Origin: a virus
Lineage: Duplodnaviria; Heunggongvirae; Uroviricota; Caudoviricetes
Strand: one strand, 5' to 3'
Virus record (IMG/VR): IMGVR_UViG_2651869696_000014
Length of the DNA: 7,116 bases
Positions within the stretch are counted from its first letter, which is position 1. Each line of letters starts with the position of its first letter. The notes beneath the pieces were generated by a model. The model searched no databases. It saw only the letters and a program-made list of their open reading frames with translations, and was not told where the DNA came from. Made by a program: the position numbers and the translations under genes. Positions 1,962 to 7,116 of the stretch are shown here, piece by piece.

Positions 1962-2759
1962 TTATAGCTCCTTTAATCGAGGCGGTTCTGGTAGAGGCAT
2001 CCAGTGGGTTACACCGCCAATTGGCTCATCGTCGTCGTACTCCAATGCGGTTATATAGAACCCGTCACGACGAGAATAAGAAATCCCGGACATTACAATG
2101 CCATCCGAAACAACAATAATGTCACCCGTTTCTTTCGGCATTCGCTCACTACAGCTTATCCAACCATCCGGAGTCACCGGAAGCGAGAACGGCAGCACAT
2201 CTCTGTGAACAAGTTTTTGCTGTGACAGGTTATCCAGAACTTTCTGTACTGCTGCATCACCGAATACACCAAGCGCATCTGCCATAACTCCTACAACCTG
2301 ATAAGCCTCAGCGCATACCGTGGATAAACCATCCGGAATTACCGGAGAGTTGCCGGGTTCTTTAATGTGCAAGCGAGGCTCACCATCTTTTGGTTCAGGC
2401 CACTGGCGCTCCATGTTGATCTTCAATTTATCTTCCATAGCAGCGGTAATTTCAGCATCGCTGATGCCAGCACGGCGCTGTGCATCCCACAACAGGAAAT
2501 GCATATCAGCCCACTCGCTGAGATCGTCTGGTTCGGCTGCGGCTTCCAGAGCCTCTTTTGAGAGGTGTTTCAGTGGACCAATGGGGCCAACGCAGCCAAA
2601 TGTGGAGTCAGACCATTTGGCATGCTCGTGGCGAATCAGTTCGCGTTCCAGTGATGCCAGTGCAATTCGTGCCAGTTCCATTTGTTCGCCACGAGTAAGC
2701 CCGTTTTCAAGCGGATTTTTAATGAACAATTCAATACGTTCTTTGGTAATAGTGGTCAT
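1962..2759 (-). CDS. Phage protein with N-terminal DUF550-type (putative MazG-like dATP/dGTP pyrophosphohydrolase) domain and C-terminal DUF551 domain (265 aa)
   Basis: Complete ORF with AAGGA 7 nt upstream of the ATG. The C-terminus ...GGVTHWMPLPEPP matches what I recall as the DUF551 signature. The N-terminal Glu-rich helices (GEQMELARIALASLERE ... EWADMHFLLWD) are compatible with an all-alpha NTP-pyrophosphohydrolase fold. The domain call is from memory, not from a search. Confidence 0.7.
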   Translation of the reverse strand: MTTITKERIELFIKNPLENGLTRGEQMELARIALASLERELIRHEHAKWSDSTFGCVGPIGPLKHLSKEALEAAAEPDDLSEWADMHFLLWDAQRRAGISDAEITAAMEDKLKINMERQWPEPKDGEPRLHIKEPGNSPVIPDGLSTVCAEAYQVVGVMADALGVFGDAAVQKVLDNLSQQKLVHRDVLPFSLPVTPDGWISCSERMPKETGDIIVVSDGIVMSGISYSRRDGFYITALEYDDDEPIGGVTHWMPLPEPPRLKEL

Positions 2760-2769
2760 TTGTTAGTCC

Positions 2770-3525
2770 TTAAAGTGCTAGTTGCAATTGCATTTCAAAG
2801 CGGTCGCGTTGTTCACAATACGCAAGAGAACCAGGGCTATTGTGTGCCTCAATCCGTTCTACCATTAATGCTGCGCGTGTCTCTTTACTTGCAGGTGCAT
2901 AAGCCCCAGACCAGGCTTTATCAATACCGATGTTTCGAGCGACGTTCGTACTATCTGCGCTGGCTAAGGGTAATTTTGTGAATATCAGCGGATTTAACAT
3001 GCGCAATCCATGTAGTTTCGTAACCGGCTGACCATGCCCATCAACAATGTGACGAATCAGGTCTTTCATTCTGGCTACCGCAAGAGTTGGGCGCTTTACG
3101 TCATAGTCGCCACAACTACCGATAGCCACTCGCGGAAACTCATTGCACAAATGAATAAATCGCTCGTCACTTTCATTCATGTGCCACACTGGAACGCCAG
3201 CTAGTTTTCCGTGAGGCCACTCATTCAGAAGCGCATCATTTTCCTCCTCTCCGCCATCAATAACATCCGGGATAATGGCAAAATCGAATCCTGGGTGATT
3301 CTTCCAGCGAGCAACAAACTCGTAGTAAACGCTCCAGTCGATTTTGTTTTTGCCAGCTGCTTTCCAGGCGGTGAATGCACCGTTGTCCAGCGCGAACGAC
3401 TGACAGTATTCAGCCGCGAGATTGATCTGGCCTGAATGCGCAAAACTGATAAACGCATGTCGCCCTTTCCATGCTCTCATTGCGCACGTATCAGGAGTAA
3501 TAGGCCCACCGTGGTAGTGAATCAT
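2770..3525 (-). CDS. TGT-superfamily protein, putative DpdA-like DNA 7-deazaguanine transglycosylase (about 251 aa)
   Basis: The track ORF is 2770..3567 (265 aa). I prefer the ATG at 3525 (MIHYHGGP...): it has AAGGAG 6 nt upstream and leaves a 1-nt gap after the upstream stop instead of a 41-nt overlap. Motifs resemble bacterial Tgt as I recall it: ALDNGAF (cf. DSGGFQ), FAIIPDVIDGG (cf. IFDEC), VAIGS (cf. AVGG), ADSTNVARN (cf. MPTRNARN), in the same order. No C-terminal zinc subdomain. Confidence 0.6.
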   Translation of the reverse strand: MIHYHGGPITPDTCAMRAWKGRHAFISFAHSGQINLAAEYCQSFALDNGAFTAWKAAGKNKIDWSVYYEFVARWKNHPGFDFAIIPDVIDGGEEENDALLNEWPHGKLAGVPVWHMNESDERFIHLCNEFPRVAIGSCGDYDVKRPTLAVARMKDLIRHIVDGHGQPVTKLHGLRMLNPLIFTKLPLASADSTNVARNIGIDKAWSGAYAPASKETRAALMVERIEAHNSPGSLAYCEQRDRFEMQLQLAL

Positions 3526-3526
3526 C

Positions 3527-3934
3527 TCACTCTCCTTTGATGCGAATGCCAGTAGCGCGGATTGCATCGATGACTTCAGAAACTTTGTATGCCATTACCG
3601 TTTGGTAATCATCGTGAAAATCTGTTCGATGAAGCATGCTGCTACGTTCCGGGAGCAGTATTTCCCGCGCTTCCAGTTCTGCAATGCGCTTTTTTGCTGC
3701 TTCCAGTTCATCCAGTAATTCCAGCACGGTAGCCGGATTAGCCTTGGCAACAAAATCCCGGACTGGCTTACAATCAATCTCCGCAATGGGTTGATACGAT
3801 GTGTAGCCATGCTGTCTTGTATAACTACCGTGACGAATAACGAAAAAATCACCATTTATTTTTTTAGCCTGCCACTTATCTTCACCGGCTTTCTCTGCCG
3901 CTTCACGCAGTGCCTGAGAGTTAATTTCGCTCAC
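3527..3934 (-). CDS. Ead/Ea22-like protein (135 aa)
   Basis: N-terminal ...QALREAAEKA... and the ANPATVLELLDELEAAKKRIAELEA coiled-coil segment resemble the Ead/Ea22-like family of lambdoid prophages (from memory). It occupies the lambda ea22 position. Its start overlaps the upstream stop (ATGA). Confidence 0.6.
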   Translation of the reverse strand: MSEINSQALREAAEKAGEDKWQAKKINGDFFVIRHGSYTRQHGYTSYQPIAEIDCKPVRDFVAKANPATVLELLDELEAAKKRIAELEAREILLPERSSMLHRTDFHDDYQTVMAYKVSEVIDAIRATGIRIKGE

Positions 3935-6704: not shown

Positions 6705-6785
6705 TTAGGAAAACAGGAAAGGGGGGTAGTGAATGCTTTTGCTTGATCTCAGTTTCTGTATTAATATCCATTTTTTATAAGCGTC
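6705..6785 (-). pseudogene. kil: Probable 3' remnant of kil, truncated at its 5' side by IS1
   Basis: Minus-strand frame open from the IS1 boundary reads ...[26 protein letters not shown] then stop at 6705-6707. In lambda, kil lies immediately upstream of and overlapping the long gam start. No start codon remains; the frame runs into the IS1 inverted repeat. Identification rests mainly on position. Confidence 0.4.
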
Positions 6786-6808
6786 GGTGATGCTGCCAAC
6801 TTACTGAT
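6786..6808 (+). repeat. IS1 left terminal inverted repeat (IRL)
   Basis: GGTGATGCTGCCAACTTACTGAT read directly in the sequence. Confidence 0.85.
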
Positions 6809-6840
6809 TTAGTGTATGATGGTGTTTTTGAGGTGCTCCA

Positions 6841-7116
6841 GTGGCTTCTGTTTCTATCAGCTGTCCCTCCTGTTCAGCTACTGACGGGGTGGTGCGTAAC
6901 GGCAAAAGCACCGCCGGACATCAGCGCTATCTCTGCTCTCACTGCCGTAAAACATGGCAACTGCAGTTCACTTACACCGCTTCTCAACCCGGTACGCACC
7001 AGAAAATCATTGATATGGCCATGAATGGCGTTGGATGCCGGGCAACTGCCCGCATTATGGGCGTTGGCCTCAACACGATTTTACGTCACTTAAAAAACTC
7101 AGGCCGCAGTCGGTAA
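6841..7116 (+). CDS. insA: IS1 InsA (91 aa), transposition repressor and N-terminal part of the InsAB' transposase
   Basis: Translation [91 protein letters not shown] matches InsA. The stop codon is the last three bases of the window. Confidence 0.96.
7099..7107 (+). promoter_or_regulatory. IS1 programmed -1 ribosomal frameshift motif (TTAAAAAAC, the A6C slippery site)
   Basis: The A6C run sits near the 3' end of insA at the known position for the InsA-to-InsAB' frameshift. The downstream insB' frame is outside the window. Confidence 0.7.

Follow-up and report, generated by a model that had tools for sequence, protein, structure and literature searches.

The DNA analyzed here is a stretch of 7,116 nucleotides from the IMG/VR virus record IMGVR_UViG_2651869696_000014, in the following called the window. 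A lambdoid prophage that resides at torS in E. coli of the Shiga toxin-producing (STEC) type is represented here by its left arm, and all genes of the window lie on the minus strand. From left to right the window holds int (1-1074), xis, an ea8.5-like gene, a gene combining DUF550 and DUF551, the gene investigated here, an Ead/Ea22-like gene, a gene for a DksA/TraR zinc-finger protein, a DUF1382 gene, exo, bet and gam, with an IS1 element at the right end. An earlier interpretation made from the letters of the DNA (below, the sequence-only reading) had proposed that the gene between the DUF550/DUF551 and Ead/Ea22-like genes encodes a DpdA-like transglycosylase of the tRNA-guanine transglycosylase (TGT) superfamily. 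The analysis presented here supports this identification as correct and places the gene in the phage DpdA family of TGT relatives.

An open reading frame is indeed present at exactly the coordinates of the sequence-only reading, 2770..3567 on the minus strand, and it is a real gene. Clustered at 90% identity, its homologues make up no fewer than 7,998 groups, and of the clusters at 50% identity 1,516 match with E<=1e-3, which is far beyond chance. The start of the gene, however, had to be corrected. Read from its first ATG the frame would yield 265 amino acids, whereas the true start is the ATG at 3525..3523, so that the coding sequence spans 2770..3525 (minus strand) and specifies 251 amino acids followed by a TAA stop codon at 2772..2770. 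This start was assigned because all homologues (30 in alignment A1) begin at the second methionine with the N-terminus MIHYHGGP, because the gene model of the Prokaryotic Genome Annotation Pipeline (PGAP) in other genomes is the same 251-residue product, and because a strong Shine-Dalgarno sequence, AAAGGAGAG, precedes the ATG at 3525. The same three observations bear out the size of about 251 residues given earlier, and the protein is identical to WP_052925532.1. The 14 codons from the first ATG onward (3526..3567, minus strand) are an in-frame extension outside the protein, which is missing from 30 of the 30 A1 homologues as well as from the PGAP model and shares nucleotides with the 3' end of the Ead/Ea22-like gene. 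As read from the sequence, the Shine-Dalgarno element is located at 3530..3538 (minus strand), 4 nucleotides 5' of the ATG and within the end of the Ead/Ea22-like gene, whose TGA (3529..3527) is separated from the ATG by 1 nucleotide. This placement supports the view that the gene is expressed in tight linkage or translational coupling with the one upstream.

Family membership, fold and active site

The 251-residue protein matches PHROG 887 ("queuine tRNA-ribosyltransferase") with E=6e-103. The DpdA of CAjan, the knockout of which leads to the loss of all dPreQ0, belongs to the same PHROG (E=8e-96). When a family profile built from 75 members (A2) was compared with CAjan DpdA by hhalign, the two were aligned over 172 columns at 98.7% and E=2.2e-16, pairing LDNGAF with LDSGAF, KLHGLR with KLHAFG and SADST with SCDSS. 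In tblastn searches of phage genomes the protein was found to be 92.4% identical to its counterparts in the Salmonella phages BTP1 and SPN3UB, about 68% identical to those of Shigella phage SfI and Vibrio phage Athena1, and 36-40% identical to those of SEN1, HK106, SE131, 7-11 and PEAT2. All of these phages have been catalogued as carrying a DpdA without preQ0 or G+ synthesis genes (Hutinet et al. 2019 Suppl. Data 1, PMC6884629), and in the same study they were described as a cluster of "singleton" DpdAs that is restricted to phages of gamma-proteobacteria (Hutinet et al. 2019, PMC6884629). The protein thus combines homology to the validated CAjan enzyme, close identity to catalogued DpdAs (92% for the nearest) and, as detailed below, the Asp pair and His of these enzymes; together with the match to PHROG 887 these results bear out the DpdA-like identity read from the letters.

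The structure of the protein was predicted with AlphaFold2 (AF2) from an alignment of 75 sequences that included representatives at 33-54% identity. An earlier run with 31 sequences, all at least 65% identical, had reached a predicted local distance difference test score (pLDDT) of 60 and was discarded. The final model has a pLDDT of 92.4 and a predicted template modeling score (pTM) of 0.89. It contains eight beta/alpha units and hence the TGT-like (beta/alpha)8 barrel for which the sequence-only reading had suggested a structure prediction as a check, and the solved structures nearest to this predicted model are TGT-type enzymes. The best structural match is the TGT-like Cap10 of type IV CBASS (9ntn_B), slightly above bacterial DpdA. 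A Foldseek search of BFVD returned 27 viral matches at E<=1e-3, many of them named phage 'queuine tRNA-ribosyltransferase'; the DpdAs of phages R5C and Bella96, which have been catalogued as such, are among these.

Among the 75 diverse family members the residues D47, H172, D191 and S192 are present in 75, D87 and H115 in 74 and G136 in 73. All four motifs quoted in the sequence-only reading (ALDNGAF, FAIIPDVIDGG, VAIGS and ADSTNVARN) are present, and the family's best conserved residues lie within them. In the AF2 model D47, D87, H115, H172 and D191 are found where successive barrel strands reach their C-terminal ends. In order and spacing they match the active site of bDpdA, the bacterial DpdA of the Dpd restriction-modification system of Salmonella Montevideo, with Asp95 accompanied by Phe99, Asp130, His181 and the nucleophile Asp256, as well as the Asp/His catalytic pair of Cap10.

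Asp47 (GAC codon at 3385..3387, minus strand) is part of LDNGAF at the end of strand 43-47 and is the proposed general acid/base; an aromatic residue follows at +4 in 74 of the 75 members. Its proposed equivalents are the aligned Asp in LDSGAF of CAjan, Asp95 (with Phe99) of bDpdA and the Asp in DSGGF of Tgt. Asp87 (GAT, 3265..3267, minus strand), in IIPDVIDG just past strand 80-84, is proposed to recognize the base. Judged from order and spacing it may be the counterpart of bDpdA Asp130, Cap10 Asp122 and FDEC in Tgt, an assignment that is tentative because the CAjan alignment has a Ser in this column and an Asp at +3. His115 (CAC, 3181..3183, minus strand), in PVWH at the end of strand 113-115, would be a ligand of the base edge; its distance from the nucleophile is 76 residues as compared to 75 for His181 in bDpdA. 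His172 (CAT, 3010..3012, minus strand), in KLHGLR and aligned to KLHAF of CAjan, is the conserved DpdA His, which DpdA2 is reported to lack. By analogy with the H226/D248 pair of Cap10 it is likely the partner of the nucleophile. The proposed nucleophile is Asp191 (GAT, 2953..2955, minus strand), in SADSTN on the last barrel strand (189-192), with the aligned CAjan SCDSS, bDpdA Asp256 and FDCV of Tgt as its presumed equivalents. The bDpdA mutants D95A and D256A are inactive (PMC10164549).

The zinc subdomain of Tgt (CxCxxC...H) is missing: beyond residue 172 no column reaches 50% Cys/His, and the chain itself stops at residue 251; the median number of Cys residues in the C-terminal part of the 75 members is 1. 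On this point, too, the sequence-only reading proved right. Compared to Tgt (E. coli b0406; Z. mobilis) and archaeosine TGT, the protein lacks the zinc subdomain and is about 125 residues shorter, its expected substrate is DNA and not the tRNA anticodon loop, and profile similarity is not detectable.

Proposed base exchange in phage DNA

The best explanation of these results, which we consider probable, is that the gene encodes a stand-alone phage DpdA that exchanges a few guanines in phage DNA for a host-made 7-deazaguanine. The enzyme, a compact (beta/alpha)8 barrel of the TGT superfamily, would act on double-stranded DNA. In the mechanism proposed on the basis of bacterial DpdA and TGT, Asp191, placed by His172, would attack C1' of the target deoxyguanosine, whereby guanine is displaced and a covalent enzyme-DNA intermediate is formed, with Asp47 protonating the departing guanine. 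A free 7-deazaguanine base, held by Asp87 and His115, would then attack via its N9 and stay in the DNA. By analogy with the DpdA-only phages analyzed so far, only few guanines per genome would be modified, probably at a sequence motif, and not replaced in bulk.

In agreement with the sequence-only reading, neither folE nor queD, queE or queC is found in the window. Because the prophage lacks preQ0 synthesis genes, the base must be supplied by the host; the queuosine pathway of E. coli (FolE-QueD-QueE-QueC) would provide it, either as preQ0 or as a neighboring compound such as ADG, CDG or preQ1. Such a supply is feasible in E. coli, since 9g DpdA alone inserts host preQ0 there (790 dPreQ0 per 10^6 nucleotides in plasmid DNA, without Tgt) and nt-1 DpdA2 produces no modification in a queD mutant.

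DNA is a likelier substrate than tRNA because the protein has affinity to DpdA and not to Tgt, because the zinc and tRNA-binding elements are missing, and because a D12 methyltransferase fusion exists. In this fusion (P0241, 421 amino acids; L010 8001-9266) a D12-class DNA adenine methyltransferase and a DpdA-like domain are joined in one protein. In a P2/186-like prophage its gene directly precedes replication gene A and occupies the slot taken in SEN1 by a stand-alone DpdA. Another fusion (P0256, 335 amino acids; L009 2840-3847) was observed on a phage-like metagenomic contig of 24 kb with no other Que pathway gene recorded, and consists of a PTPS/QueD domain and a DpdA-like domain. The PTPS/QueD part could be QueD or a DpdL-like paralogue, and this fusion ties the DpdA family to deazaguanine metabolism.

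Among known systems, the DpdA-only phages BTP1 (gp23, YP_009639228/SIU02687), SPN3UB (YP_007011024), SfI (gp34), Athena1 (AUG84879), HK106 (gp29), SEN1 (gp38), 7-11 and MED16 are closest. Their proteins are of the same family and of about 250 amino acids, preQ0 genes are lacking, and in the lambdoid and P22-like phages the gene occupies the same early-left, xis-proximal position. There is no difference of substance between them and the gene described here, except that this copy resides in a torS prophage in which IS1 lies between it and pL. The DpdA1 enzymes of Escherichia phage CAjan and Enterobacteria phage 9g, which are validated preQ0 DNA transglycosylases, resemble the protein in belonging to PHROG 887, in doing without a DpdB-type ATPase and in drawing, as would be expected here, on preQ0 of the Que pathway. 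CAjan DpdA, however, is only 24% identical, has 306 amino acids, is encoded in a folE-queD-queC-queE cluster and replaces 25-32% of G, whereas the present protein has 251 amino acids and stands alone, and the relatives in its clade modify 0.02-0.13% of G, as dADG. bDpdA (7UI4, PMC10164549) differs in its length of more than 400 amino acids, in its DNA-binding insertions, in its need for the DpdB ATPase and in its location in a dpdA-K cluster; neither dpdB nor dpdC is found near the gene in the window, where its neighbors are lambdoid early genes only.

A number of results weigh against a base-exchanging DpdA. In searches with sequences and profiles, the Pfam scan gave no match for the 251-residue protein, Pfam TGT (PF01702) matched none of the 75 family members at E<=1, and the NCBIfam and PADLOC DpdA models did not match the protein at E<=1. 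Searches of PDB sequences with the single sequence as well as with profiles A1 and A2 returned spurious matches only; CAjan DpdA itself is likewise without a match in this search. The link of the protein to TGT by sequence is thus remote. The comparison with TGT and DpdA profile hidden Markov models that the sequence-only reading had called for came back empty, so that classical models of this kind neither confirm nor refute the assignment. Since the hhalign comparison with E. coli Tgt, or with a two-sequence alignment of the E. coli and Z. mobilis enzymes, was not significant and out of register, the equivalence with Asp89/Asp264 of Tgt (E. coli numbering) is only transitive. It runs through the alignment with CAjan, the identity of DSGGF, DSGAF and DNGAF, the spacing in bDpdA and the published HHpred match of MED16 DpdA to T. 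maritima TGT (99.18%). The Foldseek ranking against the PDB contained generic TIM barrels only.

Further points of this kind concern function. The activity, base identity and biological role of the protein are what we infer from relatives, in which DNA modification was shown. Phages 7-11 and MED16, the only chemically analyzed DpdA-only phages of gamma-proteobacteria, carry in their virion DNA dADG and not dPreQ0 as the main modification, namely 50 dADG per 10^6 nucleotides, or 0.02% of G, in 7-11 and 354 per 10^6 nucleotides, or 0.13% of G, with traces of dPreQ0, in MED16 (Hutinet et al. 2019, PMC6884629; Simoliuniene et al. 2021, PMC8306585). In both phages the connection of the gene to dADG is one of correlation. 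In the DpdA-only mycobacteriophage Orion no modification was found. Finally, the copy in the window may be silent, the early-left operon being silenced or affected by polarity, because IS1 separates it from pL.

Possible role of the modification and competing explanations

According to the sequence-only reading the gene would form a DNA-hypermodification anti-restriction module. This claim goes beyond the evidence: hypermodification against restriction is unsupported because 7-11 and MED16 contain only traces of dADG, about 10-30 modified G per genome by our calculation, and because in MED16 the DNA was unprotected and was cleaved by those G-containing restriction enzymes that were tested. The most serious alternative to the reading favored above therefore concerns function and not identity, and we regard it as unlikely but worth considering. 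It holds that the protein is a functional DNA base exchanger with a role other than general anti-restriction, either setting few site-specific marks (for instance in order to mimic the self-mark that bacterial Dpd restriction-modification systems use, to escape another modification-sensing defence or for a phage-internal use) or being neutral cargo, silent in an IS1-disrupted prophage. The low levels in 7-11 and MED16 and the lack of protection in the latter are in line with few marks, as is bDpdA, which modifies less than 0.1% of G. The patchy occurrence in 201 of 5,426 E. coli genomes, the location in the dispensable mosaic region between xis and exo and the IS1 between the gene and pL fit this explanation, too. 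On the other hand, the strict catalytic conservation among the 75 members and the presence of the family in more than 8,000 clusters point to a selected enzymatic activity. Furthermore, other DpdA modifications protect against restriction enzymes and Cas9, and MED16 was tested with a small commercial panel only. A more specific version, to which we assign a low probability, is that the stand-alone DpdA of lambdoid prophages may, instead of inserting preQ0 in bulk, use a host QueC-pathway intermediate to write few motif-specific marks of 7-amido-7-deazaguanine (dADG), without a dedicated amidase/hydratase, and may thereby counterfeit the low-density self-mark found in Dpd-type modification-dependent systems of bacteria or blind another modification-sensing defence rather than block classical restriction enzymes.

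That the protein is a queuine tRNA-ribosyltransferase, which would modify the wobble position of host or phage tRNAs and tune translation during infection, is very improbable. The TGT-superfamily fold and the name 'queuine tRNA-ribosyltransferase' in the RefSeq phage records of BTP1, SfI, HK106 and SEN1 and in PHROG 887 are compatible with such a function, but the names in the phage records stem from automated PHROG labels. Neither a zinc subdomain or Cys/His cluster nor sequence resemblance to Pfam TGT or to the E. coli Tgt was detected, whereas similarity to the DNA-acting DpdA is strong, and 9g DpdA fails to complement a tgt mutant. The fusion to a DNA methyltransferase and the slot shared with it point to DNA, and the host already possesses Tgt.

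Still less credit is due to a Cap10-like enzyme that would handle a protein-conjugated 7-deazaguanine or interfere with deazaguanylation by type IV CBASS. Cap10 (9NTN; bioRxiv 10.1101/2025.04.06.647259) binds the protein-linked 7-amido-7-deazaguanine on the CD-NTase and works together with the QueC-like Cap9, encoded in a defence operon. It has in common with the family described here the missing zinc site and the Asp/His pair, and dADG is the base in DpdA-only phages; none of the Cap10 partners (QueC-like Cap9, CD-NTase and effector) is encoded beside the gene. The least probable explanation, a DNA glycosylase that only excises guanine and so damages host or competitor DNA, could invoke guanine excision as the first half-reaction of TGT-type enzymes and the lack of precursor synthesis genes in the prophage, but the residues for base recognition are conserved together with the nucleophile, dADG or dPreQ0 ends up inserted in the case of relatives, the QueD fusion implies the use of a deazapurine, and a phage would harm itself with a generator of abasic sites in its early operon.

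Neighboring genes, expression and distribution

As the sequence-only reading had stated, the gene is flanked by an Ead/Ea22-like gene upstream (3527..3934, minus strand; PF13935, E=3e-17) and by a DUF550/DUF551 gene downstream (1962..2759, minus strand), both of which were confirmed by Pfam. In the latter, DUF550 (PF04447, dATP/dGTP pyrophosphohydrolase) and DUF551 were detected with E=1e-41 and E=8e-14, respectively, and a spacer of 10 nucleotides separates the gene from the stop codon of the DpdA gene. The trio of Ea22, DpdA and DUF550 genes recurs in BTP1, where the DUF550 gene is called eaA. Beside the homologues of SfI, HK106, SEN1 and 7-11-like phages, the Ea22-like and DUF550 genes are absent. 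A functional partnership of either gene with DpdA was considered and rejected, the trio being confined to the close BTP1 module; both are mosaic neighbors and not partners, and they serve here as context without evidence of a functional linkage. The DUF550/DUF551 gene is intact in the window, but in E. coli RM8352 a frameshift breaks it in two. In a protein of 298 amino acids (P0152), a DpdA-like N-terminal part is joined to DUF551.

No promoter-like or terminator-like site was found between the Ea22, DpdA and DUF550 genes. In a lambda-like layout, N, ral, cIII, kil, gam, bet and exo lie upstream of the DpdA gene. Given its place in the pL operon and the lack of a promoter-like site of its own, the gene would be expressed on induction: as part of the N-antiterminated early-left operon, between exo and xis, it would be made only upon induction or infection, and the enzyme would act post-replicatively on phage DNA. 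In a transcriptomics paper on the BTP1 prophage the orthologous gene is not mentioned, also with respect to expression in lysogeny. Terminator-like hairpins are about threefold more common in the window (20) than in shuffled sequence (6.7). Hairpins on the minus strand are located at 4825-4803, 4230-4212, 1547-1528, 1516-1497 and 1320-1301, and the strongest ones stand between early-left gene blocks.

The IS1 element (GGTGATGCTGCC...) takes up 6786-7116 with its left end and insA, the open reading frame of which starts at 6841. The element is inserted within kil, of which a remnant is left at 6705-6786. In 81 other genomes the sequence continues through kil, cIII, ral and N. Thus the whole block from gam, bet and exo through DpdA to xis and int is parted from pL by the insertion.

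Near-identical copies of the gene were found in 201 of 5,426 complete E. coli genomes (about 4%), and the carriers include O121:H19 and O103 STEC lineages and an Stx1a-converting phage. In bacterial genomes PGAP calls the gene a 'hypothetical protein' (WP_052925532.1, WP_000582238.1). The value of the present assignment is therefore in annotation, as an unnamed protein can now be named as a DpdA-family DNA-guanine transglycosylase. The DpdA-only family was already catalogued in 2019 and the locus adds nothing beyond that; on DpdA of temperate phages the literature searches yielded no papers other than those from 2019, 2021 and 2023. The question to be asked is one about the family, i.e. what DpdA-only temperate phages insert, where and why, given the trace amounts of dADG in relatives. 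The lambdoid and P22-like carriers BTP1, SfI and HK106 are genetically tractable and should be convenient models for this purpose. A copy with 92.4% identity to the enterobacterial gene is also present in a record of 1,719 bp named 'Staphylococcus phage SA 1298 Kay' (OR850331.1), which is probably contaminated or mislabelled.

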